Shown: positions 1,508 to 33,574, counted from the stretch's first letter. The stretch is DNA of 64,000 nt from Pirellulales bacterium (GCA_963733035.1 CAVTBU010000005.1:96001-160000); one strand, 5' to 3'. The notes: generated by a model not told the origin, from the letters alone. Made by a program: numbers and translations.

Positions 1508-1510
1508 GGG

Positions 1511-2092: not shown

Positions 2093-2225
2093 ACGGCAAG
2101 CCGCCTGCGAATCGAGGGGTTCATGACCGCCCATTCTAATGTCAACTCGGCGACCGATTGAAGTTTTCGCGATGGACTGCAGAATGCATTTTGGATGAGC
2201 CAAAAATGCGGAACCCGAAGGATCG

Positions 2226-2945
2226 CTACTTCGAAGTTAGCGATTCAGACATGTTGAGCTCGAGCTTAGCGAAGCCGGGTTTCGGTCCTTTGCTTCCTTG
2301 GTCCATGGTCGCGACCTGGGCGGACAGGCGATCACGGAATACGTATCCGCTGTATTTGCGGCTCCGTGCCTCGCCGATGATCATGTTGCCGGTTTGCATT
2401 TCGATCTGGCAGCCTTGATATTCTCCACTCACCTTGACCCGCGCCGGTCTGCCGAAACGACCGATCTCGATCAGTTCTCCCTCGAAGCCAAGTTTTCGAG
2501 CTTTGGTGATGTGCAACTCGACCTGCACGGCTCCGACCTTGGTGTCCATCGTCCCCGACCACCTGGCTCCAGTAACAAACCGGTTCCGCCCGCCCAACAC
2601 GCGCGTGACCTTACGCTCCACAGTGTTTAGGCGGTGCATCTCGGGATGATCGGCTGACAAACCCTTTCGCTCCAGTACCTGACGGCATTTGTCGATGCCC
2701 GCGAGAATCACCTCGAAGTTCTTAATCGCCGGCTCGATTTTGGCAAGGAACTCGTCCGAGGTGGGCAGCTCGCCCGAATGGTCAAAGGCAGCACGAGTTT
2801 GGAAATCCAGCTGCTTTCGGAGCATGTCGGTCGCCCGCTCGACCCTCTTTTCCAGTGTGGCAATCCGATCCGTCCCAGCGGCAGCCGAACTGGTGCTTAG
2901 TACGACCACCAGTCCCATCGCCAGCGCAATTTGAATCCTTTTCAT
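2226..2945 (-). CDS. Secreted hypothetical protein
   Basis: Signal-peptide-like start MKRIQIALAMGLVVVLSTSSAAA with GGGAG upstream. Confidence 0.7.
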   Translation of the reverse strand: MKRIQIALAMGLVVVLSTSSAAAGTDRIATLEKRVERATDMLRKQLDFQTRAAFDHSGELPTSDEFLAKIEPAIKNFEVILAGIDKCRQVLERKGLSADHPEMHRLNTVERKVTRVLGGRNRFVTGARWSGTMDTKVGAVQVELHITKARKLGFEGELIEIGRFGRPARVKVSGEYQGCQIEMQTGNMIIGEARSRKYSGYVFRDRLSAQVATMDQGSKGPKPGFAKLELNMSESLTSK

Positions 2946-2990
2946 TGGTTTGCTCCCCAGCGTCCTGTTTTTTTGCGTTCCTACTGCCGT

Positions 2991-3018
2991 ATGCGAGATT
3001 GCTGGGGAGAGTCCCTCA
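2991..3018 (-). promoter_or_regulatory. Possible ECF-dependent promoter TGAGGG-N16-TCGCAT
   Basis: Bipartite motif about 45 bp upstream of the secreted gene that precedes the ECF sigma. The assignment is inference. Confidence 0.3.
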
Positions 3019-3566
3019 TCGAAGGCGGATCTTTTCTTGGGGAATTGACGGTTGGAGGGGGGCGGGTGTGGGGCGAGTGGCCGTGCCGATGGCGGGAAAT
3101 GTCGAATGGACGGCATTGAAGGCTTACCTATTTTGACTCGATTCGACACTGTGTCGGAAAATTGCCGGTGAACTTGGGCATGCGCAGGCCGGGTCGTTGG
3201 TCATCAGCCGCGAAGTCATTCGGGCAACCGTGTCAACACTTGGTAGTTGGAGGATGTCGTTTCCTGCCTTACAAACCATGCAGGACAAGCCCAGGGCATT
3301 GATATACTCAAGTCGCGCACTGGACGTTTTCGAGTCATCGCTCCGCCTTGTCGCATTCGTTGGGGCGAAGTCCTGCACTCGGCGGATCCAACGCGTACTC
3401 ATGCGTGTGGTATGATGCCCGCGTCTTTTCGGCTGGCGTGAGCTTTTGGATCGTGAACCAGTAGGGACAAGAAGTCGAAACCGTGAATGTGCGCCCTTGC
3501 TTGTCGCCACCGTTGTCGCTTCAGCACCGTGGGCAAATCGGCTGCGATTGAATGGGCGGAACTGAT

Positions 3567-17100: not shown

Positions 17101-17239
17101 GCAGAAGGCAGCAACCTTTAACGGTCAATTGTTGGCATATCGCGAAATACTTTCCACGAGCGGAATCACCGTCAGTTCGCTCTATATACATTTTCCACTT
17201 GCGGGCGTCGCGTGTCGTCTGCAGCTTCGGGATTCATGA
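14100..17239 (+). CDS. AddA/UvrD-like SF1A helicase-nuclease, frameshifted near 16100
   Basis: AGAGSGKT, DEFQD, GDPKQAIYGFR, NYRA. Motif V TYHTSKGLEW reads only after a 1-nt frame correction at ~16100. Then LYVGFTRA and nuclease GTIDL/IDHKS/QLLAY. Confidence 0.88.
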
Positions 17240-17519
17240 TCGGGAAGGGCTTTTCCCCTGCAAATCAGTTTTTCTCGTCTTCCGGCTACTCTCAGCATCT
17301 TAATTGCCTCGACATGCTGTAGTTTAGATTTCCGCCGTTTTCGATCATGTAGAGTGTGACGTGTTGGAAATCCGCATCGGCCCCCAACGTTTGCCACCTA
17401 CCCTGAAAAAATTTCTTCACCATCACTATATTATTCTGCGGAATCATGGCGGCTCGGCACGGCGCTGGGCTGTTTACCGCACCAACCCTCAAGGAGACAT
17501 ATATCGAAAGACTTGCAAG

Positions 17520-18356
17520 ATGATCGCAACCAACAAGAAGAATTTCATCCTATGGCTCTGTTCCCACCAGGAATCACCCCTCACTTTTTCCGACAACCTG
17601 CTCTATTCGTATTTGGCATGGCGTCCTGGAGGTAGCCTGCGTCAAATCGCTCAAGCAACTGGGCTAGATCGCAGCAAGTCAGTCGCTCCCGCCGTTAATC
17701 GGCTGCAGGATTTTGGACTTGTATCGGAAAACGACTATGAAGCGCTGCCGCCTCCAGCGGGCTGGTTTATCCCCAGACGATACACGGATGCCGACTGGCG
17801 AAAACAGTTTCGCTATTTTCCAATCGCCATCCGTCAAACTGAACTCACCGCGCGGCAGAACGCCCTCTATGCTGCCATCAAATGGAAACCGGCAAAGAAA
17901 CTGTCGTGGTATGCTGCGTGCTTGAAACTCAATCGCTCGGGCGCGTACAAGACCGCTGGAGAACTGCGACGGAAACAGTTCGTCGCCGCCGACAGTCTGA
18001 CCGTGCAGCCGACTGCCAAGGATATCTGGCAAGACAGAGAAGACGCCACGTTCGTGACCGACGCGCTCAAGGCGAAGTTCCCTCCTGGCTATGAACCACT
18101 CATCGCCTGGGAAGTGTCTGATCTATGGCGGAAGGTGGAGGAAGGCTCTGAGAAGTTGCTCGAACGCACGAACTGGTATAACCGCAAATACGTCCAGGGT
18201 TATTGGGAACGGGTGACAAAGATGCTGCTTACCCCTGAGCAAATTGAAGCGTTCATCTGGGAGTTTGGCAAACTATTGGACTACGTATTGGTTCGCGGCA
18301 AAGACTGGTGGGTTTCTCACCTCAACCACGAGCATCGTCTGCGCACAGATCAATAG
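17520..18356 (+). CDS. Tandem-HTH protein, putative replication initiator
   Basis: Two wHTH-like segments (SLRQIAQATGLDRSKSVAPAVNRLQDFGLV and LSWYAACLKLNRSGAYKTAGELRRK). Followed by repeats and an A-rich tract. C-terminus may be frameshifted. Confidence 0.55.
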   Translation: MIATNKKNFILWLCSHQESPLTFSDNLLYSYLAWRPGGSLRQIAQATGLDRSKSVAPAVNRLQDFGLVSENDYEALPPPAGWFIPRRYTDADWRKQFRYFPIAIRQTELTARQNALYAAIKWKPAKKLSWYAACLKLNRSGAYKTAGELRRKQFVAADSLTVQPTAKDIWQDREDATFVTDALKAKFPPGYEPLIAWEVSDLWRKVEEGSEKLLERTNWYNRKYVQGYWERVTKMLLTPEQIEAFIWEFGKLLDYVLVRGKDWWVSHLNHEHRLRTDQ

Positions 18357-18430
18357 AATGTGGCACCAGAAACTTCCTGGCAGTCACTTCTATTGGAGTT
18401 TCGAACCGACGACTTTGGGGAAGTTTTAGG

Positions 18431-18575
18431 TGGTCGCTTTGGCGACAGTCGCTGGCTGCTTTTGCAACAGGCGAATGAAAATGTGGTTGCTTTTGCAACA
18501 GCACGGTGACCGAATGGTTGCTTTTGCGTGACAAAGATTAAAAGAGATACAAATAAGAAGAGAATGAATAATCTC
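18431..18575. repeat. Four 18-bp imperfect direct repeats with palindromic core plus A-rich tract (iteron/origin-like)
   Basis: TGGTCGCTTTGGCGACAG (18431), TGGCTGCTTTTGCAACAG (18453), TGGTTGCTTTTGCAACAG (18484), TGGTTGCTTTTGCGTGAC (18515). Confidence 0.75.
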
Positions 18576-18927
18576 AAGCCCTGCGGGCTGAGGTCACTGA
18601 AAAGCCGCCTTCGGCGGGTCGAAGTTGCCGTTGTCTCGCCAAAGCATGGCGCAGGTCCAACCTGGAACGTGCGTCAGGATAGTTGGAAGCACTCCAGAGT
18701 CAAAATTTGGGGCACTTTGTCCCGTGCAGAGCAACGACGCTACCAGACTGCCCGTTCTTGGTATCAAATCCGCCAAAATCTTGGCGATTGAGACCACACG
18801 AGGGTGATTTGAGGTCGAGAGTTGATTTCGGCGATTTTGAAACGTTCTTGCAGTGGTCGTTGTGACTTCCAAAGTCCCCTGCCAGTGAAGGGCAACATCG
18901 CCAGCCATCTGGCTTCCTCTGGTGGAG

Positions 18928-19191
18928 TCATTCGCCCAGGTCTTGCAGCAGACTCAAGAAGTCATCGTCGTCCTCGTCACGGGAAACATCTTCCGGGGTC
19001 AGTGCCTCAAGTTCACGAAGTGCTGATTGGAATTCTTCGTCCAGACTATGTTGGCGATCTGCATACCATTGACGCAGATTGGCAATGGCAATCTGCTTCG
19101 CAGACTCAAAGTTGTAACTCGGGCGAGCCACCGCGATATGGCGACCCTCAACCGAATAGTGCACCTGATTCGTTGGTTGGTAGTATCGCAT
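18928..19191 (-). CDS. Small hypothetical protein with acidic tail
   Basis: 87-aa ORF with GAGGAG RBS. Confidence 0.65.
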   Translation of the reverse strand: MRYYQPTNQVHYSVEGRHIAVARPSYNFESAKQIAIANLRQWYADRQHSLDEEFQSALRELEALTPEDVSRDEDDDDFLSLLQDLGE

Positions 19192-19251
19192 TCGTTCTCC
19201 TCGATGGATTGGTTATGGGGGTTGATAGACTTCGCTGGACTTCGTAATTGT

Positions 19252-19450
19252 CTAGGGGCAATCTTCGTCCAGCCTGACACGCTCTTTTGCTGCCGCAGAT
19301 TGCTGCTCCAGCGCCGCGAGAATCCGCCACGCTTAATTCTCGTCGAGCACCCAGGCAATTACCTCACCGTTTGAGTCGAGCACCTCGTAGCCGTCGCCAG
19401 TGCTACGCGCGGCGACCTGTAAGAGGTGCGGTAGAATCGAAACTACTCAT
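19252..19450 (-). pseudogene. Degraded small gene
   Basis: ATG overlaps the upstream stop. The protein-like frame GDGYEVLDSNGEVIAWVLDEN*AWRILAALE needs a frameshift and has an internal TAA. Confidence 0.3.
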
Positions 19451-19733
19451 CACCTTCAAGCAGATTCAACGATTCACGAATCTCTTGCATTTGCAGCGCC
19501 AAGAAGACGGCACACGCCAATACCTGTTCGGTTTCGCTCGCGAAATGGGTATTGTCCCAAACCGTTTTCCCCGTCGCGGTCCAGCGAGGTTTGCCATCCG
19601 GCCCGATCTTGACCTTGCCGTGTCTTACTAGGTCACTAAGGATCTTGTCGATCGCCGCGGCGTCGAGCGAACGATCATGGCAAAAACGCACCGTCGAACT
19701 CAATTCGTAAGAACCTTTCTCGCTCTCAACCAT
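19443..19733 (-). CDS. Hypothetical protein
   Basis: 96-aa ORF with AAGGA RBS, co-oriented in the operon. Confidence 0.6.
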   Translation of the reverse strand: MVESEKGSYELSSTVRFCHDRSLDAAAIDKILSDLVRHGKVKIGPDGKPRWTATGKTVWDNTHFASETEQVLACAVFLALQMQEIRESLNLLEGDE

Positions 19734-19824
19734 TTTGTGCTTCCTTTAGATGTGCATGTTTCTGGAGGCATGGTTCCGTGATGGGTGGTGACAAGGCGAA
19801 CGCTCTTGAACTTATTGCTCACCG

Positions 19825-20422
19825 TCAGGCTTCGTCGTCGTGTCCGAAGAACGGAAGAATATGGCTTTCGGCGTCACCTAAACATCCCCGGACAGTGACC
19901 CTCGACTTGTCGGACCACGTGTAGGGATCAGAGGGCGCGTAGAACGCTTGGTTCCACTCGTCCGCGTCCGGATCATCAACGCTGCCGTGCGCACCGCAGC
20001 AGATGCACCTCAGAATCAACCACACTTCTGCCACGCGCTGTCGAGCAGACGACCCATTTGTGGTCGCACTGGCGGATTCGATTCAGATCAGCCGGAGCAA
20101 GGGGTTGGGCAACACAGAGATTTTCACCACCCGGCAAGACTCCGCGGTCTTCATCCGCCTCCGCCTTGAGAACATCGCTTACGGCGACTCTAAGGACTCG
20201 CCCGCCATGCTCAACGACCACTGGAAGACTGTCGCTTGGCTTGAGTCCCAAGTACGACGAGTTGTCGTGGTCGTCGTCATTCAGGTCCAATACGCGGAGC
20301 GGAGAACCTAATTTTAAACGGGACAGATACTGCAGCCGCGGATCGTCTTGGTTTGCTGCCCAGTCTTGACCCTGCGCGAACTGTTTCTTGCTGGGTTCTT
20401 TTTTCTTCGATTTCTTAGCCAT
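19825..20422 (-). CDS. Hypothetical protein with Cys/His domain, frameshifted near 20035
   Basis: ORF 20422 (AAGGAG RBS) reaches QCDHKWVVCSTA. The adjacent frame continues AEVWLILRCICCG...VDDP...PYTWSDKSRVT, matching the 5066-5590 domain. Confidence 0.68.
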
Positions 20423-20467
20423 TTGGATCTCCTTAGGTACCTCGTACTTCCGACGTAATGGCGATTG

Positions 20468-20962
20468 CTAGGCACTGGCTCTGAGCCGCAGTCCCGGCAA
20501 GCGGCTCAAGCGTTTCAACTGAATCGGAGTGACTTCCCCGTAAATCAGAAAACACACACCTTTCGTATTTCCAGGCGATCGCAGTTCGCACGGCGGTTCG
20601 AAATTAATACGCCGGTCCGGAACAAAGATCATCTGCGGTGGATCGTCGTGAACGGCGCGGGCCGTCAACGCGTTCATAGGCCAGACGACCACTGCAAGTT
20701 CTGCGTTCGAAGCCGCGGGCAAGAACCTTCCCGCGCCCGAGAACGGTGGGTTGCAGTAGACCCGCTCGCCTTCCCATGACTGCAGGGCCGCATCCTCTTC
20801 CACAGTCCAGTAGCGTTCGAGCAACGCATCCGCTTCGCTCGCGCACGCATCGATCGTAAACAGAAAGATATTGTCGAGAACCTCGAACACTGCTCGGGGT
20901 GTTCTCCAGCATTGACGAGCATCGCTTGGCTGGGTTTCAACAAACATTGAATTCCTTCTCAC
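20468..20962 (-). CDS. Phage-type DNA N6-adenine methyltransferase
   Basis: WRTP, FTIDACAS, W...VYCNPPFS and RRINF. Confidence 0.85.
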   Translation of the reverse strand: MRRNSMFVETQPSDARQCWRTPRAVFEVLDNIFLFTIDACASEADALLERYWTVEEDAALQSWEGERVYCNPPFSGAGRFLPAASNAELAVVVWPMNALTARAVHDDPPQMIFVPDRRINFEPPCELRSPGNTKGVCFLIYGEVTPIQLKRLSRLPGLRLRASA

Positions 20963-21819
20963 TACTGAATGTCAGGTTTCTGGTTCGGTGGTTCCGACTG
21001 CCCGTCTAGCCGTTGTTGTCGCTCCCATTTAGCCCACTCGACGCGCGCTTGCGCGAGTTCGACGTACGGCTTATGGATCTCGAAGCCGAGAAACCGGCGA
21101 TAGTTGAGCAGTGCCATGACCGCCGTTGTGCCCGAGCCCGCCAGCGGGTCGAGCACCAAATCACCTGGGCGGCTGAACGTAATGATCAAATCCTCTGCCA
21201 TTGCCTCGGGCATGACGGCTGGATGGCGATCAAATACGTACTTCGACTTACTCGAATTGTTGAAACCTGCGTTGTAGCGCCAGACGCAGCTCCGACGCCC
21301 GAAGGGCGGCACGACCTTGCCGGTTCTTTTTTGATAGGTCAGGTGCCCTGCCCGATTGCGGACGCTGTGTTGGATACGATCGCCAGCGGTAATGTTTGGT
21401 TTGTCTCGGATGATGTGGACCGTTTTCGGGGTACCCTTGGAGTAGACCATCGCAAATTCGGGCGTCCCTGGATGCCGTTGCGGCGGGCAGCGATGTCCCG
21501 CTCTTTCCATCACGAGCGGCACCACCAAGTCGAAGCCGCTATCTCGCGCCATTTCAAAATGCGTGAATACGCTTTGGGAGCAACGTCCCTGTTGGACTTG
21601 GTCTTGTTCCACCCACACGACGACGCCACCGGGTTCGACAATTCGCTCGAGCTCGTCGAAGACGAGTTCCGAATCGAAACTGTGCCCCCCATAGTTGCGC
21701 ATCTTGCCGTATGCCGGCGACGTCACCACGAGCGAAATGCACTCGTCCGGGAGCCGACGCATCAAGTCAACGCAGTCGCCATGGATAATCTCATCGATCC
21801 AAGGAATCTCACTCGACAT
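20962..21819 (-). CDS. N4-C/N6-A DNA methyltransferase (beta class)
   Basis: IIHGDC, VVTSPAY (motif IV), HPAVMPE, VLDPLAGSGTT (motif I) and GFEI. Confidence 0.9.
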   Translation of the reverse strand: MSSEIPWIDEIIHGDCVDLMRRLPDECISLVVTSPAYGKMRNYGGHSFDSELVFDELERIVEPGGVVVWVEQDQVQQGRCSQSVFTHFEMARDSGFDLVVPLVMERAGHRCPPQRHPGTPEFAMVYSKGTPKTVHIIRDKPNITAGDRIQHSVRNRAGHLTYQKRTGKVVPPFGRRSCVWRYNAGFNNSSKSKYVFDRHPAVMPEAMAEDLIITFSRPGDLVLDPLAGSGTTAVMALLNYRRFLGFEIHKPYVELAQARVEWAKWERQQRLDGQSEPPNQKPDIQ

Positions 21820-22497
21820 CAAGTCCCTCGATAACGTTTGCAATTTGCTTTGCAGCCTGCCTTGCCATTTCCAACCAATGCTTCCGCTCCTCGTCGTCTG
21901 GCTCGTTGTCTTGGAGGTTTTCGGCGAGCCATTCCCGCGGCTAACCATCTGCGCAAGACGCATCCCGAAGCTATCTGGATCCTCTTTGGGAGGGGCGGGT
22001 AATGTGGCTTTGGTTTCACCGTTTTTGCTGTTGCGGTCGCGGTTCGCGCTCGTGTCACTTGAGCGATCGGGCTTCTCCGGCTTCTCTTTGCCGGTTGGAA
22101 TGTCAAATCGCTCGTACGCCTGCTGGATCGTCAGTCCCTCGATTTCCGATTCCGACGAAGCGCGTTCGAACAACTGGCGCGCACGACAATCTGTAGCCGC
22201 GCTGACATTCAGCCTTTTTAGAAAAGATGCCCACTCGCCGTGTTTGACTTTCTTCCGCGCGAAGGCGAGTGCTCGCCCAAGGCGGTAGGTATGAACCGCC
22301 AACCGTTTTTCGTAGCTGAACACGGCTTGGTGCTCGTGTGTGATCTCGGTTTCCAGGTCTTCGAGCGACCATGTGTCGTCGGGGACAAATCTTTCAGCGT
22401 GAAACGTTTTCGGTTTCGTCCTTTTTGTTTTCGCAATCATTCCATTTCCGTTTCGAGAAGTGGCATTTGCTAACGGTGCGGGTTTCGCCATGCTCAA
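21809..22497 (-). CDS. DUF3102-like phage/ICE protein, probably frameshifted near 21935
   Basis: LGRALAFARKKVKHGEWASFL resembles DUF3102. The alternative frame EWLAENLQ...IANVIEGLDVE* ends overlapping the MTase ATG. Confidence 0.55.
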
Positions 22498-22586
22498 TTT
22501 CCGTTCACCGAGAGGGGCTCTCCCTGTCAGGGAACGGTTGATCCAATCCTTTTCGGCTAGATCGCTGAGATTGGTTCCGACGGTTG

Positions 22587-23117
22587 CTAACCATCGATTG
22601 CTACCGCCTGACTGACCTTTTGCTCTGCATCGAGTGCCGCGGATTCCTTGATTCGCTCCACGCGGTCTTCGGTCTGCTCAAGCAAGCGATACCGGAAGCC
22701 ACCAAATTCACCGCCAACGTGCCGCTCTCGGCTTTTAGAAATCCATCCAAGGACCACTAGTTCTTGTAGAGCGGCTCCAGCAGTGTTGCGATTGCAGCCA
22801 CACGCACGAGCGAGCGCGCCTACGGTCCAAACTGCCTGCAGCGCAGTTACGCGATCGCCGTGGATTTCCTCGCGTTTCGTCGCCCTTGGCTCTATGGAAG
22901 AGTGCGGTTCGCTCTCCTCGCATTCCGCAGGGCCAGCGACGGCGTGGACTGTCTCGGACCCGCAGGAGTCAACCGTCAAAGAGGCGCGTGGAACGCCGAA
23001 TCTGATGGCGTGCTGGAGCAGAGCGATCAGCACTTGAAAGATTCGAGGCGACGCTAAGTTGAAGCCGGGCGTGCCCGGCTTCGGCAAGTAGCATAGAACA
23101 TTCGACGGCGAGCGCAT
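22587..23117 (-). CDS. Winged-HTH protein (regulator or replication protein)
   Basis: WTVGALARACGCNRNTAGAALQELVVLGWI...YRL. GGGAGG RBS. Confidence 0.7.
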   Translation of the reverse strand: MRSPSNVLCYLPKPGTPGFNLASPRIFQVLIALLQHAIRFGVPRASLTVDSCGSETVHAVAGPAECEESEPHSSIEPRATKREEIHGDRVTALQAVWTVGALARACGCNRNTAGAALQELVVLGWISKSRERHVGGEFGGFRYRLLEQTEDRVERIKESAALDAEQKVSQAVAIDG

Positions 23118-23156: not shown

Positions 23157-23910
23157 GTTAGGTCGATATTCAGATATTTAGTCGATATTACGCTTATTGG
23201 CAGTCACGGTCCGAACAAGAAATCAGGACACCGGAGGGCAGGAAAATAATATCGACCTCGCCCGTATCAGATTGTGGTGCCGATGACGTTCGGCGACGTT
23301 GTTGTACCTCAGCGGTTGACCATCGATTCGTTCACTTCGATAGCAATTATATGCCAATTTTTTCGATTGTAAAGTGAACCAAGCGTTTTTCCATCTACCA
23401 TGCACAATTGGCTGTGCACCGCCAACGACAAAACAGTGAGGAGGCATCCTCGCTGCGACTGGCTATGATACGTGAACCAAGCATTGCATCCGACGCGTAG
23501 TGGTGCGCCAATCAAGGCATCTCCATGCGCATGATAGCGTGCGTGGTGATCTGGCGAACCTAACGTCGAGATGTTTAGCGAGCGCCACCACAATTGGAGA
23601 CACTGGCATCCAATCGCGGTCGCGGCGCCTCACGATGAAACGGTCGTGGTCGTCGGATGACGCGACTCCAGTTGTGATCTGTTCCGCCGACCTCGGTGTC
23701 CATTGTGTTACAACGGCAGGACTGGTCACGGCAATCGCCGCGATCTGAAAACAACTTTTCGGAATGTCATCTTTAGCGCGGTAATATTTCTGGCCAGCCA
23801 ATCGACATGCTCATCCGACGTAGCGAGCCCCAACCGACGATGGGCCGCTGAGGAATCAAGTTGTCGTTGGTCGGCGAAGCTCGGGATCCCTATCGGAGAT
23901 AAGTCGACCT

Positions 23911-23977
23911 TGTCAGGTCTTTCTCACGCCAGTGTCAGGTACGGTGTCAGGTATTCGGTGACCGCAGATCCTGACAC
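23911..23977. repeat. TGTCAGGT x3 plus one inverted copy (possible integrase arm-type sites)
   Basis: Copies at 23911, 23933 and 23945, and CCTGACAC at 23970. Confidence 0.6.
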
Positions 23978-24037
23978 GTTCTGTAAGTGACTGAAGCGAC
24001 ACATGTTAAGGAGTCAACGGAAGCGACCTCTCGGAGA

Positions 24038-24051
24038 CCCGCCGCCTCCAC
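24038..24051 (+). other. tmRNA-like 3'-end fragment, putative attR
   Basis: CCCGC-CGCCTCC-A-C fits a T-stem strand, an acceptor strand with U70 of the Ala identity pair and discriminator A. There is no TTCGA T-loop upstream. Confidence 0.55.
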
Positions 24052-24075
24052 TTTTTGGCAGTTTTTCCGCCAGAT

Positions 24076-24125
24076 GACACCGAGTGCTCCTCGGTGTCGT
24101 AACCCCTGTCAGAGCAGGGGTTTTT
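24076..24125 (+). terminator. Twin hairpins, the second an intrinsic terminator
   Basis: GACACCGAG-N5-CTCGGTGTC, then AACCCCTG-N6-CAGGGGTT running into a T tract. Confidence 0.65.
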
Positions 24126-24401
24126 CGTTCACGCAGTCGCGTGCGATTGCTGCGCGGCCTCTCGGGTCGCTTGTGACGACCACATCCTCGCCCACCTGCG
24201 CTTGCCAAGTATCCCGTTTCGTACGCAGCCCGGCCCAAACTAACTGCAACAACAAAGCGTCGTTTAGACCCCACAGCGCGAGCGAGAGTCGCGCCGTTTT
24301 TCCACCGCAAGTTACTTCGACGCAGTTATCGGCTTTCCAGAACAGCCACTCCTGGACGACGCCGTTTCTGTTGCAAGAGAATCGCAGCCAGGGCTGAGGA
24401 C

Positions 24402-25403
24402 CTACGCCGTCACCCTTTCAGCCTCTTGCCAGCGAACGGCGAGCGTTGCCCACAAGCGCCACACGCTTGGGTCGCGGCGAATCATGCACTCGATCGCGAT
24501 ACCGATCATTAACGCCGCAAGCGAACGTGCCGCGTCGCTTTTCGAATCCATGTCATCGAAGGGCAGCGGGCGTCCAAACTGAACCCGAACTTCGCCGTCG
24601 TCTAGCGGCCATTTCCGGGCGACGGTGACAGGAACCACTGCGGCCCCCGTCCGCAAGGCGAGCGAGACGGCGGCGCTGGCGATCAGGATCGGACCTCCGA
24701 GCAACGTCGACAAGATGCCGGGTGTGCCGGGATAGAGAAAGTCCGCATAGATTGCCACGCACCCACCCGAACTCAATCGCGTCAACATCGGTCGTAAGGC
24801 GGCGGCAGTCGTTGGCAGCAGTTCCACGCGATCTCGCAATCCGTCCAACAACAGTGAGCTGTGTGGTGCGCTGCGATCGCCCAGATTGGCCACGGCACTT
24901 AGCCCTAGCCGTTTCCACGCGCCGTGCATAAAGCCGAACCCGGGGTGACTTTGATGCACCGACAGGGCAATAACGCCGCGCCCGCGGTCGAGCGCCTTGC
25001 GCAAATGCGTTTCGCCAGCAACCGTCACGTTGTCCCACGGATGGCCGTCCCTGGCGTATCGAAAATCCACGACATCCGACAAGTTTACAAACAGCGATTG
25101 CGTATGACGTCGCAGTATCTCGGCCAATTCGGCATCCGACCAGACGTGGTCCAGGCCTTGCGTGTTCGCGCGTAAGAACGACGCATATCCTCCGCAATCG
25201 CTATCGAAAGCGGCGGCTCCCAACTCGGCCAGCCAGGCGCGACGCTCCACGGCCGGCATCGCGCGACTCGCCGCGAGCCAATCCTCGTCGACGAGCCAAT
25301 TCCACAACAGCCGAGGCAGCGCATTCATGGCGTCCGCCGAACTGAGATTGGCAAGATCGCACCGCACGCGCCGGTCGACCCGCTCACTCGTGCCGTTCTG
25401 CAT
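24402..25403 (-). CDS. LPLAT-superfamily (LpxL/HtrB-like) acyltransferase
   Basis: GETHLRKALDRGRGVIALSVH, VAIYAD, LALRTGAAVVPV and IRRDPSVWRLW. Overlaps the rSAM stop by 20 bp. Confidence 0.85.
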   Translation of the reverse strand: MQNGTSERVDRRVRCDLANLSSADAMNALPRLLWNWLVDEDWLAASRAMPAVERRAWLAELGAAAFDSDCGGYASFLRANTQGLDHVWSDAELAEILRRHTQSLFVNLSDVVDFRYARDGHPWDNVTVAGETHLRKALDRGRGVIALSVHQSHPGFGFMHGAWKRLGLSAVANLGDRSAPHSSLLLDGLRDRVELLPTTAAALRPMLTRLSSGGCVAIYADFLYPGTPGILSTLLGGPILIASAAVSLALRTGAAVVPVTVARKWPLDDGEVRVQFGRPLPFDDMDSKSDAARSLAALMIGIAIECMIRRDPSVWRLWATLAVRWQEAERVTA

Positions 25404-26796
25404 ATCGTATTAGCCGATCTGACGCCGCGAGGCGGCGGAAAATTTCCGGAAATAACGCCAGCGAAAGCGAGCATGTCACCGGGTCAACACTATCCAGGCT
25501 CGCGCGTGCCAGGCATGTTCCACCGCAGAAGACACGCCAATCGCAATCGCGACATTGTGTCAGCGAGTCCGCGCTACGAGCCCGGATGGAGGCCGCCCGG
25601 TCCGACGAAAGGCTCGCCGCCAAACCACCGGCGCGGATGTGTCCCAGATCCAACGTGCGATCCTTGATGCAATCGCACGACCTCACTGTCCCGTCGGCGG
25701 CCACCGAAACCAGATCGGCGGCGGCTCCACAGCCGTTGCGCAAACAAAAGCTTTCGCGCCGGTACGACAATACGTTGCGCAAATAGCGTAGCACCGGGCG
25801 AACGGCCAAGTCGTCGAACTCGCCCTGTTCCACGGCATCCAGTAACTTCAGATGCGCGGCGATCAACTCGTTGTCGTCCGGTGCGTAATCTTCGGGCCCT
25901 GTGGCCCCTCGCCCGCCCGCGTCAAACATCGTGGCGTCCCATTGGCGCACACCAAGGTCGCGCACATAGTGGGCAACGTCGATCAGGTGCTCGACATTTG
26001 CTCGCGTGATGGTCGTCAGAACGCCGATTTTCGGAACCAGCTCCGGAAAATCACGTAGGGCCTGTTCGATTGACTCGTGACTTCCTTGGCCGGCGTGATC
26101 GACCCGCCATCGATCATTCAACTCGGCCGGTCCGTCGAGCGATATCCCAACGCCAATCTTCTCCCGGAGAAGGAAGTCGACCGTCTCGCGCGTAAATCGC
26201 GTACCGTTTGTTTGCAAGCTGAAACCAACGGTCTTGCCGCGCTGGGCCGCGGCACGGCGTGCGTATTCCGTCAGATGCACCAGTTCCGGGAACGCTAGCA
26301 GAGGTTCGCCGCCGTGGTACAAGAGCGTCAATTGCTCGCCGGCCAAATCAAGCGCCTCATCGATCGCCCGCTCGGCGACCTCAATGGGAAGCTTGTGGTG
26401 ATACGTGTCTGGGTCGAAGTCATAACAATAGGCGCAAGCCAGATTGCAGTACCCAACCAGTTTCAACAACAGCGTCTGGAGCGGGCCGCCCGTATGCACG
26501 AAGCGCGCTTCGGTAAACGCCGTGCGTCCGTCGCGCTCCAGCAACCCACTTTCGAACAGTCTGCCCAGCAAAGGTTCGTGGGCGGGCTGGCGGTCGTCCA
26601 TCAGCCCAAGTTCAACCGCCTGCACCAATCCGATAAACTCCGGCATTTTCTCCTGCGGAAGAATTGCCCACGACCCACTGGGAGGGTGTAGCAACAAAAC
26701 CTGGCCGCCGGGAATCGCGCGACGACGTATCGGGCGAACAAATCGCCAGCGCGCCTTCCGCGCCAAGGACTCCCACGGTACAAACGCGACAGCCAT
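25384..26796 (-). CDS. Radical SAM/SPASM maturase with RRE-like N-terminus
   Basis: CNLACAYC, YHGGEPLL, LQTNG, GISLDG, and SPASM CLRNGCGA...CDC...CRDCDWRVFCGGTC...C. The ~85-aa N-terminal extension ends LLGRLFESGLL. Confidence 0.92.
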   Translation of the reverse strand: MAVAFVPWESLARKARWRFVRPIRRRAIPGGQVLLLHPPSGSWAILPQEKMPEFIGLVQAVELGLMDDRQPAHEPLLGRLFESGLLERDGRTAFTEARFVHTGGPLQTLLLKLVGYCNLACAYCYDFDPDTYHHKLPIEVAERAIDEALDLAGEQLTLLYHGGEPLLAFPELVHLTEYARRAAAQRGKTVGFSLQTNGTRFTRETVDFLLREKIGVGISLDGPAELNDRWRVDHAGQGSHESIEQALRDFPELVPKIGVLTTITRANVEHLIDVAHYVRDLGVRQWDATMFDAGGRGATGPEDYAPDDNELIAAHLKLLDAVEQGEFDDLAVRPVLRYLRNVLSYRRESFCLRNGCGAAADLVSVAADGTVRSCDCIKDRTLDLGHIRAGGLAASLSSDRAASIRARSADSLTQCRDCDWRVFCGGTCLARASLDSVDPVTCSLSLALFPEIFRRLAASDRLIRYAERHE

Positions 26797-26798
26797 GG

Positions 26799-27089
26799 TC
26801 AGCCCTCGCACAGCTTCCAATAGCCCGCCTTGCGGGACAGATCGCTGTCTTTCTTCTTCAGCTTATTGATGTCCGCTGCTTTCAGCGTGCCCTGCGTGAA
26901 CACCACATGGGTCATGTCGTACTCACCGTCGTGTCCAAACACAGCGCGCACCGTGTCGTCGAGGAACTTCTGGTCGGTTGCCTTGACCGCCATCACCCGG
27001 TTGTAGAGGTCACTGGGCAATTTAATCTCGATCGTGGATTCAACCTTCGGTTGGGAGGATCGTTTTGGCGATTTCTTCTTTTTCCCCAT
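26799..27089 (-). CDS. Putative RiPP precursor peptide (96 aa)
   Basis: Lys-rich ORF ending KAGYWKLCEG. Stop lies 2 bp before the rSAM ATG. AAAGGGA RBS and promoter upstream. Confidence 0.7.
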   Translation of the reverse strand: MGKKKKSPKRSSQPKVESTIEIKLPSDLYNRVMAVKATDQKFLDDTVRAVFGHDGEYDMTHVVFTQGTLKAADINKLKKKDSDLSRKAGYWKLCEG

Positions 27090-27136
27090 TGCGGGCATCC
27101 CTTTCATAGACAAAACCATCGGGAGTGGTAGGACAA

Positions 27137-27191
27137 CGGGCCCCTCTGCAAGGGCCCGCTAAGTGTGGGGTAGCAACCAGCCCGATGTCAA
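27137..27191 (-). promoter_or_regulatory. Sigma70-like promoter and 5' leader hairpin
   Basis: TTGACA (27191-27186), 18-nt spacer, CACACT (27167-27162), then CGGGCCC-N8-GGGCCCG. Confidence 0.55.
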
Positions 27192-27240
27192 GCAATTTCT
27201 TTTGAGGCCGCTGCTCGCGGGAAGCAACTCGGCTGCGTGC

Positions 27241-29793
27241 CTACCGCCCGGGCGGCGGCGATTGCCCCAACACCTCGGCCGCTTCGCCGTACAGGCGGCG
27301 GATCTGCCGCAAATGACGCGGCGCTTGAGCCCATTGGCTGCCCCGTGAATACCAGTCGAGGGCCTCGTCGCGACTGCCCAGCTGCCAGAGCGACATTGCC
27401 AGGTAGAACCAGTCCCAAGCATCGCCACCTTCCCGCAAGTCGATGCTTTTCCGAATTGCATCGACGGCGTCTTGCCACTGCCCCGACCGGTAATACGCCA
27501 CAGCCAGTGTGTTCCACGCTTCGGCGTCCCTGGGAGCCAGCTCGGTGGCCTGCCGGGCGAGTCGGCGTGCATCGTCCAGCCGGCGGACTTCGGGGTCCGC
27601 ATAGTTTGCCCAAAACCTCGCCGCGCGGTTGCATAGCTCGACGCTTTCGGGATATTCGGCCAGCGCGGCCGCGTAGATCGCCGCGGCCTCCTGGGGCTTG
27701 CTCGACTCCTCGTACATCTCGCCAACCGTACCAACGGCGATGGCCCACTCGTCGCGGTAAGTGGACGAGTCCGGGTGCGCGTCCATCAGGTCGTGCAACA
27801 GTTTCTCCGACTCTCGAACCTTTTCGATCGCTCGTTGACGGTCGCGCATCACCCACGTCGCCATGCCGAGGTAGTAGTCGAAACCGGCGAGGTCCTGGCG
27901 GAGCCCAGGAACTTCCGGCGCCCTTGAAACGAGCTGTTCCCAGATTTCGGCACCCCTGCGAATCGCCCTGAAGGATGCCAACGGATTGGACGGTGGCGCG
28001 GCACTTCGGCGGTTATACCGCGGTCCTCGAAATACACCACCAACCCAACTCGAGATTTGAGCGGCATCCACGCCGGATTCAAGTGATTGTTCCACCAGGT
28101 CCAAGCCCTGATTCAGCGATGCCAAGGAATCATCGCTGCGACCCAGCGTCATTTGTACTTGCGACAGCCGCAAATAAGCCGAGGCCACCTCGGCCTTGAC
28201 CACCGGATCATCCCCCTGCGTTTCGAGGAATTCCCTGTAATACCGCAAGGCTTGTTCCAATAGTTCATTGCGCAGCGGTTGTAGTTCTGGTTCGCCGAGC
28301 AACCGACTCTCACTGACGGTCGTCATATAGTCGTCCACGGCTCGGCGTGCGCGTTCGAAGTGCGCCTTGGCCCGAGTTCGTTCCTGCGAGGCGACTTCTC
28401 GTTGGCGAGCCTCGCGCGACAAGGCAAGTTGAGCCTCATTGCGTCGCTCGTCCGCTTCCTTCCTCGCCGCCGTTTCACGAACCAAGGCGGCCTGTGCTCG
28501 TTGATAGGCCAGCGACGACACGATGGTGCCGGAAACGAGCGCGGTGACCGTCAAACCGATCAGCAAGGCGAGGACGGGGTTGCGCCGCACCCAGCGCCAT
28601 GCGCGGCCCACGGAACCGACGGGCCGAGCCGCGATGGCGCGTCCTGCGAGAAACCGGCGCAAATCATCAGCCAGCTCTTGCGCCGTCTGGTAGCGCCGTG
28701 CGGCGTCCTTCTCCAGGCACTTCAGCACAATCGTTTCCAGATCGCGGGGGATCGTTCGATTGATGTTGCGCGGCGACGGCGCCTCGTCGTGGATAATCTG
28801 GTAGCTAACCGTTGCGGCGTCGCCGTGGAAAGGGCACTCGCCGGTCAGCATCTCGTACAGCGTGACTCCCAACGAGTAAACATCGGTGCGTCGGTCGGCC
28901 GACGCCGCTTGCCCTTTTGCCTGTTCGGGAGACATGTAGGAGGGCGTCCCGAGCAGTTCGCCATCGAGGGTCATCGTGCGACTGTCGTCCGCCCATTTGG
29001 CCAAGCCAAAGTCGGTGATATGCGGTTGATTGGCTTCATCCATGATGATGTTGCGCGGCTTTAGGTCGCGATGGACGACCCCACGTTGGTGCGCATGATC
29101 GAGCGCAACGGCGAGCTGCCGGCAGAGTTCAGCCGCGTCGCGCGGAGTCAACGGCGTCTTTGCCAGCCAGTCGCGCAAATTCTCACCGGCGATGTAAGCA
29201 GAGACGATGTAGGCCATCGCCCCGTCTCGCCCCACCTCATAGACCGGTACGATTCTTGGATGAGAAAGTTGCGCCGCGGCTCGACCTTCGCGCAGGAAAC
29301 GGTTTAGCTCATCGTCAGACAGGTAATGGGCTCGGGGAATCTTGATTGCAACGGTCCGCTGCAGTCGAGGGTCATTAGCCCGCCACACTTCGCCCGCCGC
29401 GCCGGCCCCAAGCAGCTCGAGCAGCTCGAAATGAGCGACCCTACGACGAACCGCTGGCGGCTCGGCGGCATCCGTGTTTTGGGACTCTGAAGCTACGGCG
29501 CGCTGCATGAACCTGGCTTGTTCGAGCTGCTCGGCAAACTCCGGAAACCGCGTCGAGTAGGCTTGCCATGCCCCTTCGTTGGTGCCGTTTTCACGCAACT
29601 CCATGTCGACTAGGACCAGCTCGACAAATAGGCGGCGGCGGTCGCCAGGATCGGATGCCGCGAGATACGCCGCCAGATCTGGCGCATCACCGGCCCGAAT
29701 CTGCCGTTCAAATCGGTCGCATAGGAGGTCAATGCGATCGTCGACCGTCAGCACGGACTGTTGCTCATTTCGTATCGAGGTCTCGTTCTGCAC
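27241..29793 (-). CDS. Ser/Thr protein kinase with transmembrane helix and TPR domain
   Basis: GAGAAGEVW, VAIKIPR, HRDLKPRN, DFGLAK, GTPSYMSPEQ, hydrophobic helix and TPR-like repeats. Confidence 0.94.
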   Translation of the reverse strand: MQNETSIRNEQQSVLTVDDRIDLLCDRFERQIRAGDAPDLAAYLAASDPGDRRRLFVELVLVDMELRENGTNEGAWQAYSTRFPEFAEQLEQARFMQRAVASESQNTDAAEPPAVRRRVAHFELLELLGAGAAGEVWRANDPRLQRTVAIKIPRAHYLSDDELNRFLREGRAAAQLSHPRIVPVYEVGRDGAMAYIVSAYIAGENLRDWLAKTPLTPRDAAELCRQLAVALDHAHQRGVVHRDLKPRNIIMDEANQPHITDFGLAKWADDSRTMTLDGELLGTPSYMSPEQAKGQAASADRRTDVYSLGVTLYEMLTGECPFHGDAATVSYQIIHDEAPSPRNINRTIPRDLETIVLKCLEKDAARRYQTAQELADDLRRFLAGRAIAARPVGSVGRAWRWVRRNPVLALLIGLTVTALVSGTIVSSLAYQRAQAALVRETAARKEADERRNEAQLALSREARQREVASQERTRAKAHFERARRAVDDYMTTVSESRLLGEPELQPLRNELLEQALRYYREFLETQGDDPVVKAEVASAYLRLSQVQMTLGRSDDSLASLNQGLDLVEQSLESGVDAAQISSWVGGVFRGPRYNRRSAAPPSNPLASFRAIRRGAEIWEQLVSRAPEVPGLRQDLAGFDYYLGMATWVMRDRQRAIEKVRESEKLLHDLMDAHPDSSTYRDEWAIAVGTVGEMYEESSKPQEAAAIYAAALAEYPESVELCNRAARFWANYADPEVRRLDDARRLARQATELAPRDAEAWNTLAVAYYRSGQWQDAVDAIRKSIDLREGGDAWDWFYLAMSLWQLGSRDEALDWYSRGSQWAQAPRHLRQIRRLYGEAAEVLGQSPPPGR

Positions 29794-30399
29794 GGATAAG
29801 TTCCCTGGTCCATGCGTCGCGAATTAATTGCAACTTGCGCTGGATCGACCGTGTGCTCAGCGCCAAACCCGCGGCAATCTCAGACACGGTGTATCCCTCG
29901 ATCCGGGACACCGCGATTTTCCGCAATTCGTCGTCGCGTAGCAAACCCATCAGGCGGCGGCTCTCTTCCGCAAACGCAACCAAATACTCCGGTGTTAGAG
30001 AATCCCCAATTAGTTGATCGAGACGTTGGCCATTCCCCGTGTGACTACCATCGACGAGTGCGGACTCAGAATGCACTTTACCGCCGCCGCGTTTCTTCGC
30101 CTTCTCTCGCCGAATAAGGTCGATGCTCTTTTGCCGTGTCATCGCCAACATTAGCCACCACAATTCATCGCGGTTTCTCACATCCTCAAAGCGGCCTGCC
30201 GCGGCGCCGCGACAAAGGCTGAAAAAGACGTTTTGGGCCACGTCCTCCTCATCGGCGACACTTTTTCGCGCGCGAGCCAACTCCGACATTGCGCCTCGAT
30301 CAACGGTGCGCGATACCTATCCCAGATTTTCTGAACTGCGTCCAACTCGCCTGCTTTGAGCGAGGCGATCCATTGACTGACCGAGTGCTGCGTTGGCAT
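29765..30399 (-). CDS. ECF sigma factor (kinase-associated), frameshifted near 30290
   Basis: MPTQHSVSQWIASLKAGE...QKIWDRY in one frame, and ADEEDVAQ...EGYTVSEIA...RSIQRKLQLIR in another. Confidence 0.85.
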
Positions 30400-31937: not shown

Positions 31938-33440
31938 CTATTCGCCCTCCGTCGCGACGCAGAACAGCTTGTCACGAGTTCGAATGAATAGGGCACCGTC
32001 GGCAATGGCGGGCGTCGCCACAACGCTTGCGCCCATATCGTTGATCGCGAGTACTTCGTAGTCCGCATCGTCCTTCAGCACGGTAATCATGCCATTTTCG
32101 CCAGCCACATAGATCTTTCCATTCCCGGAAACCGGCGAGGCGAAATAATCGCTGGCGCTGGCGATGCGTTTTGGACCTCGTAGTGGCTCGCCGGTGTGGA
32201 TGTCGAACACCGTCGTAATGCCACCCCCTTTCAGTAGCAGCATACGACCGTCGGAAATAAAGGGCGAGACAATATGGTCGGTGTACTTGGTCCGGTGTTT
32301 CCAGAGCACGTGTGAGTCGGTCACGTCTCCGCTACCTCCGCCGCGGACAGCCAGAATGAATTCGTCGGCGGCCGCATCGCCGCTCGACGTAAACGTAGCC
32401 CCCGCAAAGTTATCAGGATGCAAGAAGGCCGCGTCCAATTCAGCTCCTTCCAAGAAGCCGTCGTGGTTTGCATCGCCGCGGCCGAAAGTCTTCTCGAAAA
32501 ACGCTGCGGGAATTGGCATCTTGCCGACAAATGCCTGAACCTCTGCCTTGTCGATCTTGCCATCGCTGTTTCCGGTCTCTGCCTGGTCGACCGAGACCAA
32601 CCACTGATTTGCAATACCGCCACTTTGCACTGAAATATAGATGATGCCTTCCGAACAGACCGGCGTCGTCTTGATGTTTCGCAGCAGCGTCTTGGCATAC
32701 CAACGGCGTTGGCCGTTCCGCGGATCATAACCGATCAACAGGCCCGTTCCCGCAACCACGATCTCATCGCGTCCGTCGACGGTATTGATGACGGGATGCG
32801 AGTAGTTCACCGCCATGTCGATCCGCTCGTCCTTCCATCGCAACGCGCCACTCCGCCGATCAAACGCGTACATTGCCGGATTAAGATCATCGTCTTGGCA
32901 AAACAACAGCATGTCGCGATAGATGACTGGAGACATTCCAGCGCCCCACTTGAAAACGAAGAACGGCACAGGAAGCGGTTGCTGCCAAACATCGGAACCC
33001 GAGCGCGCGTCGACCGCGAGCATGCCGAGCGAGCTGAAATAGAAATAGACACGCTCGCCATCCGCGGCGGGGGTTGAACTCGCGTGGCTGTTGGTCTGAT
33101 GTACCTCTGGCAGTTCGCCGCTCGGCCAGTCTCGGCGCCAGAGTTTCTTACCCGTCTCGGCGTCAAACGCGAAGAGGCTGATGGTTTGCTCGCCGGTCAT
33201 GCCACTAACAAACACCCGGCCGTCGACCACAATTGCTCCGCCCACGCCATCGCCCACGGGGACAGACCAGCGCACATTTTCGGTACCCGAAAACTCCACG
33301 GGCAGCGCCTCGGAGGTGGCTGAAATACCGGTGCAATTGGGGCCGCGAAATTGCGGCCAGTCGTCGGCTCGCGATGAGAGAACGCCACACGACAAACCCA
33401 TCAGCATCAAGGCCAAAACGACGCGACTTTGGTGGACCAT
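31938..33440 (-). CDS. PQQ-like/BamB-type beta-propeller with EF-hand-like insert
   Basis: DWPQFRGP, ASSTPA, ASPVSG and ATPAIADG repeats, plus DANHDGFLE. Confidence 0.88.
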   Translation of the reverse strand: MVHQSRVVLALMLMGLSCGVLSSRADDWPQFRGPNCTGISATSEALPVEFSGTENVRWSVPVGDGVGGAIVVDGRVFVSGMTGEQTISLFAFDAETGKKLWRRDWPSGELPEVHQTNSHASSTPAADGERVYFYFSSLGMLAVDARSGSDVWQQPLPVPFFVFKWGAGMSPVIYRDMLLFCQDDDLNPAMYAFDRRSGALRWKDERIDMAVNYSHPVINTVDGRDEIVVAGTGLLIGYDPRNGQRRWYAKTLLRNIKTTPVCSEGIIYISVQSGGIANQWLVSVDQAETGNSDGKIDKAEVQAFVGKMPIPAAFFEKTFGRGDANHDGFLEGAELDAAFLHPDNFAGATFTSSGDAAADEFILAVRGGGSGDVTDSHVLWKHRTKYTDHIVSPFISDGRMLLLKGGGITTVFDIHTGEPLRGPKRIASASDYFASPVSGNGKIYVAGENGMITVLKDDADYEVLAINDMGASVVATPAIADGALFIRTRDKLFCVATEGE

Positions 33441-33574
33441 CCGGACATCCCAATTGCGCTGGTGGTCAATTTTGGTAAGCGTCATGCCGCGTCTCCCGTA
33501 AACTGGGGCCAAGGTGTTTGCGATCAGTCAGATCCTCCCTGCCGTTCTAAGTGTCGTTCATCCCGTAGCCGACT

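Follow-up and report, generated by a model that had tools for sequence, protein, structure and literature searches.

A 64,000-nucleotide stretch of DNA from a Pirellulales bacterium (GCA_963733035.1 CAVTBU010000005.1:96001-160000), here called the window, raises the question of what is made when genes for a small protein, a radical S-adenosylmethionine (SAM)/SPASM enzyme (rSAM) and an acyltransferase of the LpxL/LpxM/PatA family (LPLAT) are coupled on one strand. An initial annotation had proposed that the trio produces a crosslinked and fatty-acylated ribosomal peptide. This is still the best reading, although all of its chemistry is what we infer: we give a probability of roughly 0.58 to the small protein being akin to a ribosomally made peptide with post-translational modifications (RiPP) that receives a crosslink at tryptophan and an acyl group near its cysteine.

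The three genes are arranged as had been described, co-directional and tightly coupled on the minus strand, in both the open reading frame (ORF) list and the sequence itself (Table 1). From its first ATG, the small ORF would encode 106 amino acids (26799-27119). From the internal ATG it gives a 96-amino-acid product, MGKKKK...GYWKLCEG, and homologs begin at an equivalent MAKKK. The rSAM gene can be read from an ATG or from a TTG further upstream, and the ATG is preferred because it fits the starts of homologs as well as a 470-amino-acid database entry (P0001). Because the stop codon of the small ORF ends at 26799, a gap of 2 bp separates it from the rSAM gene. The LPLAT gene in turn overlaps the end of the rSAM gene, with its stop codon, by 20 bp.

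The small protein belongs to an undescribed family

The small ORF has no match in Pfam or NCBIfam, and a word-based homolog search returned only the query itself. A profile search later recovered a family, with 55 matches at E ≤ 1e-3 among 1.84 billion representative proteins, six of them at E ≤ 1e-10. Fifty-two of the 55 are 63-185 amino acids long; the remaining three, all large repeat proteins, seem to be spurious matches. A hidden Markov model (HMM) built from eight other loci, with the window sequence excluded, recognized the window frame at E = 6.1e-05, and the next of the 1302 frames scored 0.65. P0140, a protein of 94 amino acids, is 55% identical to the window peptide and has the same GYWKLCEG ending. 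Judging from these comparisons, the 96-amino-acid ORF is a real, conserved gene of an undescribed family.

In the rSAM loci, the peptides share an architecture that runs from a Lys-rich N terminus through a strand of the T-I-x-I-x-L-P-D type, two helices and a second strand to a variable linker and then a C-terminal motif in which W, K/R and C abound. The window peptide is Lys-rich over residues 1-17, is folded as β-α-α-β over residues 18-66 and has a disordered tail (67-96) that ends in G-Y-W-K-L-C-E-G. An AlphaFold2 (AF2) model computed with the family alignment resolves the fold as β(18-24)-α(26-38)-α(40-51)-β(59-66). The mean predicted local distance difference test (pLDDT) score of this model is 73.6, with blocks over residues 21-50 at 89-94, the tail at about 52 and both ends disordered.

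The folded domain was also compared with known structures. Foldseek returned no match below E 1, and a wide structure search reached Z 3.5 at best. A protein atlas gave scores of 0.81 or lower only. The ribbon-helix-helix (RHH) proteins NikR, ParG, NikA, Arc and AmrZ scored Z 2.0-2.4 only, and Pfam RHH_5 matches one of 50 scanned family members, at E = 0.18; an RHH identity for the modelled domain is not supported. No Pfam family is common to these 50 members. The leader had been judged to be unlike those of the Nif11 and NHLP types, and this is borne out in that the window peptide matches neither in Pfam or NCBIfam, nor does any of the 50 members at E ≤ 1. In two members of the family, at L090 189-743 (+) and P0125, the Lys-rich part is replaced by an N-terminal extension of about 100 amino acids, stretches of which are hydrophobic and membrane-like.

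The peptide family occurs with three sets of enzymes

Synteny was assessed in 17 rSAM loci, comprising L002-L004 on genome contigs and L083-L096 on 14 metagenome contigs that were found with a family-specific DNA pattern. A profile scan of genome contigs with the rSAM alignment yielded mostly distant SPASM enzymes, the usable loci being L002-L004, which are 37-39% identical in the best segment. The counts given here describe the sampled loci; most of the 55 peptide matches and of the approximately 57 rSAM homologs lie outside them. Sequence upstream of the rSAM gene is present in 13 of the loci (L002-L004 and L087-L096), and in each of the 13 the end of a small ORF falls close to the start of the rSAM gene, at most 28 nt inside it and at most 54 nt before it. 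The conserved small ORF with a W/K/C tail motif that had been anticipated beside rSAM homologs was therefore found wherever the upstream sequence allowed. An LPLAT gene follows the rSAM gene in eight of the 17 loci (L004, L087, L089, L090, L093, L094, L096 and L002), the one in L002 being a remote homolog (E = 1.6e-18); the sequence of L088 ends too early to be scored.

The distribution of the genes was surveyed in a sample of 400 other genomes from the same order (390 for the peptide profile), three of which belong to the same genus, and in a sample of 400 other genomes from the phylum. Nine of the order genomes have an LPLAT homolog. In eight of these (L104 and L107-L113), a peptide of the family lies directly upstream of the LPLAT gene with no rSAM gene between them, and the encoded LPLATs are 45-67% identical to that of the window; in the ninth (L106), the contig begins inside the LPLAT gene. 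The peptide profile matches six of the 390 order genomes, all six LPLAT-positive, and diverged peptides were recognized by eye in two more LPLAT-positive genomes. No rSAM homolog was found in the order sample (0 of 400), neither LPLAT nor rSAM has a homolog in the phylum sample (0 of 400 each), and the three genomes of the same genus are without LPLAT, rSAM or peptide.

Because the rSAM is absent from an order sample in which peptide-LPLAT pairs occur, it appears to be an addition in the lineage of the window. Within the order, the regular set is a kinase, the peptide and the LPLAT. The peptide family is thus met with three enzyme sets: LPLAT only, rSAM only, and both.

The kinase, which was initially overlooked, is a conserved part of the module. 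Its gene lies directly 5′ of the peptide gene in the window and in nine further loci. In all six of the long order loci (L108-L113), it is represented by orthologs with 57-58% identity over about 730 amino acids, and in L087, L091 and L095 by homologs with 37-40% identity. In the window protein, a hydrophobic segment, judged by eye, follows the kinase domain. Kinase fragments lie upstream in L096, and no kinase gene lies directly upstream in L089, L090, L093, L002 or L003.

Tail motifs correspond to the enzymes present

The rSAM loci and the window together provide 12 distinct rSAM-linked peptides (window, L002, L003, L004, L087, L088/92, L089, L090, L091, L093/94, L095 and L096), which can be compared with the eight peptides of the LPLAT-only loci. 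A Trp after the folded domain is present in 12 of 12 rSAM-linked peptides and in 1 of 8 LPLAT-only peptides, and 11 of the 12 rSAM-linked peptides have it in the form W-x-[K/R]. The motif [K/R]-x-C is found in 15 of 16 LPLAT-linked peptides, including all eight that are LPLAT-only; in the peptides from the order, the tail always has K-[L/V]-C-[E/D/Q] or R-K-C. Four rSAM loci without LPLAT (L003, L091, L092 and L095) complete the comparison, with Trp in 4 of 4, W-x-[K/R] in 4 of 4 and [K/R]-x-C in 0 of 4. These counts are small. Since Lys and Arg interchange before a constant Cys, the Cys is a likelier acyl acceptor than the Lys, which is not the obvious choice.

The rSAM resembles SPASM enzymes with an N-terminal recognition domain

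Pfam identifies Radical_SAM in the rSAM at 3.8e-14 (53.6 bits; cut-off 29.5) and SPASM at 6.6e-06 (26.8 bits; cut-off 21.5), and Fer4_12 also matches. In an alignment of 27 rSAM sequences, the three cysteines of the CX3CX2C motif (C125, C129 and C132) are invariant, as are C359, C364, C382, C423, C426, C432, C436 and C450 of the SPASM region; C384 is nearly so. The stretch from C423 to C436 has the form CX2CX5CX3C. All 25 NCBIfam families listed for the protein score below their curated cut-offs, among them PapB (161.9 bits against 340), QhpD (140.9 against 453), DynA (136.1 against 450), SCIFF (113.9 against 425) and DarW (101 against 650). The named maturase families YhhB, XyeB, FxsB, GrrM/OscB and AmcB likewise remain below cut-off.

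The first 90 or so residues had been described as an extension resembling a RiPP recognition element (RRE), and structural comparison supports this. The rSAM family profile aligns with CteB (5wgg) at E = 1.2e-42, beginning at chain residue 15. The AF2 model of the window enzyme has a mean pLDDT of 90.9, and residues 32-90 form three strands followed by helices. On CteB, model residues 28-468 superpose on chain residues 1-450 with Z 35.3 and a root mean square deviation of 5.2 over 403 aligned residues, and on TigE (8vpo) model residues 22-468 align with Z 27.7. Superposed on anSME, which has no N-terminal domain, the model aligns only from residue 113 (Z 36.2). Pfam PqqD does not match the rSAM at E ≤ 0.01. 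Because the extension superposes on the RRE-bearing N termini of CteB and TigE, it is predicted to have the place and the fold of an RRE. The peptide of L091 contains no Cys at all, so thioether formation is unlikely to be a reaction common to the rSAM family.

The LPLAT belongs to a family of lipid acyltransferases

Pfam assigns residues 36-315 of the LPLAT to Lip_A_acyltrans (PF03279; 3.9e-11, 43.1 bits against a cut-off of 22.3), and the Pfam scan gave no GNAT match. The protein lies below the NCBIfam equivalog cut-offs for PatA (37.7 against 209) and for lauroyl acyltransferases (24.6 against 248 and 18.1 against 540). Searched with the LPLAT family profile, LpxM (5kn7/5knk) is found at E 5e-07 to 9e-07. 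The closest homologs of the LPLAT, with 57-67% identity, are in Pirellulales and Planctomycetia metagenome-assembled genomes; the lengths of their contigs differ from those of the rSAM matches, except for a single length of 5803 bp common to P0108 and P0005. No N-terminal membrane anchor is apparent by eye.

Two residues stand out as candidates for catalysis. One is H153, part of Q-S-H-P-G, conserved in 18 of the 20 sequences with coverage there; the other is D221, part of Y-x-D-[F/Y]-x-[Y/F], conserved in 21 of 21. At H150, by contrast, relatives often have Tyr or Phe. D221 aligns with the 'PDH' of LpxM and comes a few residues ahead of the part alignable with PatA, in the region around PatA E200; this is reminiscent of the pair in PatA, a His and a distant Glu. 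With these residues, catalytic activity of the LPLAT is plausible, not assured. Genes for lipid A or phosphatidylinositol mannoside (PIM) synthesis were not seen among the neighbours scanned in the window and in six related loci, the scan being one of neighbours and not of the whole window; within that scope, the original remark that no lipid A genes lie nearby holds.

A proposed pathway and its weak points

These observations suggest a module of four parts, a receptor-type Ser/Thr kinase with tetratricopeptide repeats (TPR), the small protein, the rSAM/SPASM enzyme and the LpxL/PatA-family acyltransferase, in which the small protein would be the substrate of both enzymes. The folded β-α-α-β domain (18-66) would act like a leader and be recognized by the RRE-like domain of the rSAM, and the disordered tail (...G-Y-W-K-L-C-E-G) would be the part that is modified. 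In a first step, modelled on DarE at W-x-K and on WprB at W-P-R, the rSAM would couple the ring of the indole (or phenol) with a carbon in the side chain of the adjacent Lys or Arg, giving a small cyclophane. In a second step, the His153/Asp221 pair of the LPLAT would, in the manner of PatA, move a fatty acyl group from acyl carrier protein (acyl-ACP) or coenzyme A (acyl-CoA) to the tail. The acceptor would most likely be the Cys thiol of [K/R]-x-C, the Lys amine being the alternative. Acylation could come after or before the crosslink, and this order is conjectural, as are the donor of the acyl group and what becomes of the product and what it does. The kinase may regulate the module or sense its product.

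Several points weigh against this pathway. Both reactions are inferred. The rSAM reaches no NCBIfam cut-off, so that no family assignment tells which type of reaction it catalyses. The LPLAT lacks the canonical HX4(D/E) motif, with no acid at +5 of either His, and H153 is lost in the LPLATs of L096 and L004. To our knowledge, characterized PF03279 members acylate hydroxyls of lipids or glycolipids, not peptides. An LPLAT gene was not found in eight rSAM loci (L003, L083-L086, L091, L092 and L095), so the co-occurrence that had been expected of the two enzymes holds for only part of the sample.

The peptide itself adds further reservations. A folded domain of 50 residues together with a Lys-rich N terminus is unusual for a leader. 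The window tail reads Y-W-K and is without the W-x-[K/R] spacing of the other 11 rSAM-linked peptides; it would fit an aromatic-x-Lys/Arg motif only if the Tyr were the ring donor. L090 has an LPLAT but its tail, WRRSG, has no [K/R]-x-C, and L113 has a tail Trp without an rSAM. Moreover, the eight LPLAT-only loci come from one order and are not independent, so that the motif-enzyme counts overstate the support. Finally, the window has no adjacent protease or exporter, which fits a retained, modified small protein as well as it fits a released natural product.

Alternative explanations

The alternative that survives best, although we consider it unlikely, is that the 96-amino-acid protein stays in the cell. 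Acylation of its tail would, with the Lys-rich N terminus, tether it to the membrane as a partner or substrate of the kinase, and the crosslink would be optional. Kinase-peptide adjacency is indeed the most constant feature of the module, being present in the window, in 6 of 6 long order loci, in L087, L091 and L095, and in a second pair in L085/L095. The 50-residue domain is folded with confidence in the AF2 model, the surroundings of the module in the order include neither a conserved protease nor a conserved transporter, and peptide and LPLAT there strictly accompany each other, without the rSAM. However, the S8 protease of L087, the PatG-like protease of L086/L091 and the ABC transporter of L003 fit processing and export, and L089, L090, L093, L002 and L003 have no kinase directly upstream. 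Phosphorylation or binding of the peptide by the kinase is only supposed, and the TPR part of the kinase would be extracytoplasmic if the hydrophobic segment recognized by eye spans the membrane.

A related and doubtful proposal is that the LpxL/PatA-type enzyme acylates the Cys, or the neighbouring Lys, of [K/R]-x-Cys as a bacterial counterpart of palmitoylation, with the kinase controlling or reading the lipid switch and the crosslink being specific to certain lineages. If so, the module would be a new kind of signalling device and not a gene cluster of the antibiotic type.

It is improbable that the LPLAT acts on a lipid or glycolipid, with the small protein regulating the LPLAT or the kinase and only the rSAM modifying the peptide, which would then be crosslinked and not lipidated. 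The PF03279 assignment, with PatA as the best NCBIfam family and LpxM as the match in the Protein Data Bank (PDB), would favour such a substrate, since the known substrates of these enzymes are lipids, and in eight of the 17 rSAM loci the system does with no LPLAT. The genetic evidence points the other way. In the order, LPLAT and peptide genes are adjacent, and all six peptide-positive genomes among the 390 searched are LPLAT-positive. The [K/R]-x-C motif follows the presence of the LPLAT (15 of 16 against 0 of 4), no lipid A or PIM genes were found among the scanned neighbours, and the 20 bp by which the gene overlaps that of the rSAM point to a common function.

Far less credible is a kinase-based anti-phage defence system, or the cargo of a mobile island, in which the RiPP-like appearance would be incidental. 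In PADLOC, the PD-T4-6 models match the kinase domain (E = 3.9e-86); the genes just downstream include those for a helicase resembling GajB/UvrD, a nuclease of the PD-(D/E)XK type and two methyltransferases acting on DNA; and the distribution is patchy, both enzymes being found in 0 of 400 phylum genomes and neither in the three genomes of the same genus. Yet a match to the PD-T4-6 models is what one would expect of any kinase domain of the Hanks type. PADLOC finds nothing for the peptide or the LPLAT and only weak viperin matches for the rSAM (5e-12), and the defence-like neighbours are not conserved in related loci.

That the genes are adjacent by chance and the 96-amino-acid ORF is not a gene, as the failed word-based search and the lack of a Pfam or NCBIfam family might suggest, is refuted by the 55 profile matches, the independent HMM (E = 6.1e-05), synteny in more than 20 loci and the confident AF2 core.

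Relation to known systems

In its proposed crosslink, the RiPP-like reading of the module is close to darobactin (DarA/DarE) and WprA/WprB. DarE makes a C-C link between Trp and Lys (PMC9055067). WprB links Trp-C5 to Arg-C-gamma at WPR motifs, and the WprB precursor families include ones with a single WxR/K motif (PMC11851443). As in these systems, an rSAM/SPASM enzyme is paired with a ribosomal peptide that has a Trp two residues before a Lys or Arg, which applies here to 11 of 12 peptides. The present module differs in that its rSAM lies below the DynA and DarW cut-offs, that its precursor has a folded 50-residue domain and a Lys-rich N terminus, that a kinase and an LpxL-type acyltransferase are attached and that the window motif is Y-W-K. 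CteB, the SCIFF thioether maturase, and TigE are the closest solved folds over the full length, including the N-terminal RRE domain. The rSAM is only about 16-20% identical to them, and the L091 substrate without Cys makes a thioether unlikely as the shared reaction.

Selidamides, lipoavitides, goadvionins and lipolanthines offer the nearest likeness for the lipid, as ribosomal peptides that are fatty-acylated by an acyltransferase encoded beside the precursor, which is what we propose here. The initial annotation had cited LPLAT enzymes as the precedent in selidamides. This was wrong, as the selidamide acyltransferases belong to the GNAT superfamily; passages of the source use the term GNAT 38 times and none of the terms LPLAT, lysophospholipid and LpxL (PMC8784127). 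The acyltransferases of lipoavitide, lipolanthine and goadvionin are also GNATs (bioRxiv 10.1101/2023.10.25.564083), and another route to lipidated RiPPs uses the lipoprotein pathway (PMC13056109). Unlike these systems, the module has a PF03279 enzyme in place of a GNAT, a leader that is neither NHLP nor Nif11, and a Cys in the motif that tracks the enzyme.

PatA and LpxM/LpxL belong to the same Pfam family as the LPLAT, whose conserved His and Asp align near their catalytic regions. The LPLAT differs from them in falling below the equivalog cut-offs, in lacking HX4(D/E) and in having a small protein as its partner in place of lipid A or PIM genes.

In the maturation of quinohemoprotein amine dehydrogenase by QhpC/QhpD/QhpE, the substrate that an rSAM/SPASM enzyme crosslinks is a small protein and remains one, its leader being cut off by an S8 protease; QhpD makes Cys thioethers. 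The likeness is that QhpD is the second-best NCBIfam match of the rSAM and that S8 proteases are encoded beside the module in L087 and L086/L091. The differences are that the rSAM scores under the QhpD cut-off, that no dehydrogenase subunits are encoded nearby and that Cys is not universal in the peptides.

In the main text of the open-access literature, we found no report in which an rSAM RiPP cluster is connected with a PF03279 enzyme or with a Ser/Thr kinase, and the papers found on Planctomycetes with RiPPs and radical SAM enzymes, judged by title and abstract, contain no such module. A ribosomal peptide modified by an rSAM would be of a known kind; lipidation by a PF03279 enzyme appears to be unreported for peptides in the open-access literature searched. 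If the proposed pathway is true, acylation of a peptide by an LpxL/PatA-type enzyme would be a new chemistry for peptide lipidation and a new class of substrate for a family of lipid enzymes. The three enzyme sets amount to a natural experiment in which the role of each enzyme is directly testable. The constant upstream receptor-type kinase would, in addition, tie the modification of peptides to Ser/Thr signalling, both in planctomycete-like bacteria and in others from soil.

Regulatory elements and neighbouring genes

The trio had been described as lying behind its own promoter. In favour of this, a promoter-like element is present in the 151-nt spacer between the kinase and peptide genes of the window, and an alignment of nine such spacers shows TTGACA-N17-GACACT in seven of the eight related ones (L107-L113, not L104). 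Against it, a scan for the sigma-70 consensus over 23900-27400 called 0 sites. The claim is thus partly supported, by the conservation of an element with N17/18 spacing. The G+C-rich hairpin that follows has no T-run, is not listed as terminator-like and is not visibly conserved in related spacers.

Table 1. Positions of the module genes and of surrounding features in the window
Feature	Position	Strand	Evidence or remark
UvrD/GajB-like helicase	14052-16154		downstream of module
PD-(D/E)XK nuclease	16139-17239		downstream of module
Dam methyltransferase	20468-20962		downstream of module
N6_N4 methyltransferase	20962-22497		downstream of module; weak DUF3102 match
Helix-turn-helix protein	22587-23117		downstream of module; weak match
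LPLAT, LpxL/LpxM/PatA family (PF03279), 333 amino acids	24402-25403	minus	Pfam
rSAM/SPASM enzyme	25384-26796	minus	470 amino acids from ATG 26796, or 478 from TTG 26820
Small protein (candidate precursor), 96 amino acids	26799-27089	minus	internal ATG at 27089
G+C-rich hairpin	27138-27157	minus	GGGCCC, 8-nt loop, GGGCCC; between promoter-like element and peptide start codon
Promoter-like element	27162-27191	minus	TTGACA (27191-27186), 18-nt spacer, CACACT (27167-27162)
Ser/Thr protein kinase, 850 amino acids, C-terminal TPR region	27241-29793	minus	Pfam Pkinase 4.2e-50 and several TPR families
Extracytoplasmic function (ECF) sigma factor	29765-30289	minus	Pfam Sigma70_ECF 1.9e-25; overlaps kinase start by 29 nt

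The ECF sigma factor gene was considered as a conserved partner and rejected, as tblastn at E ≤ 1e-5 found no homolog of it in 23 related loci. The genes at 14052-23117 together look like a defence or mobile island. The window contains no tRNA genes. Sequencing runs that contain parts of the stretch are of soil-metagenome DNA only, with no RNA run listed.

Further kinase genes were seen in two other settings. In the single metagenome lineage represented by L085 and L095, a second kinase-peptide pair lies in tandem around the rSAM gene (L085 1783-2037 (-) and 4536-4832 (+); L095 5541-7940), and a third ORF of the peptide family, on the opposite strand, looks truncated. In L004 (Micromonospora mangrovi), a Ser/Thr kinase at 1209-3296 (-), 33% identical to the kinase domain of the window, is encoded on the strand opposite to the peptide-rSAM-LPLAT trio and lies upstream of it by about 2 kb.

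As had been stated, the window has neither a protease nor an exporter next to the module. Elsewhere, L086 and L091 2726-4795 (+) encode a 689-amino-acid protease (Peptidase_S8, PatG_D and PatG_C) that is convergent to the rSAM gene, with no LPLAT at these loci; a plain S8 protease follows the LPLAT at L087 2397-3932 (-); and an ABC transporter lies beside the module in L003. Together, these genes suggest processing and export in some lineages. In the window (31938-33512) and in four of six related order loci (L108 14082-15599, L110 4566-6479, L111 3929-5455 and L112 2909-4288), a few kb at most separate the module from a PQQ_2 beta-propeller gene, whose proximity may reflect residual synteny or a functional neighbour.

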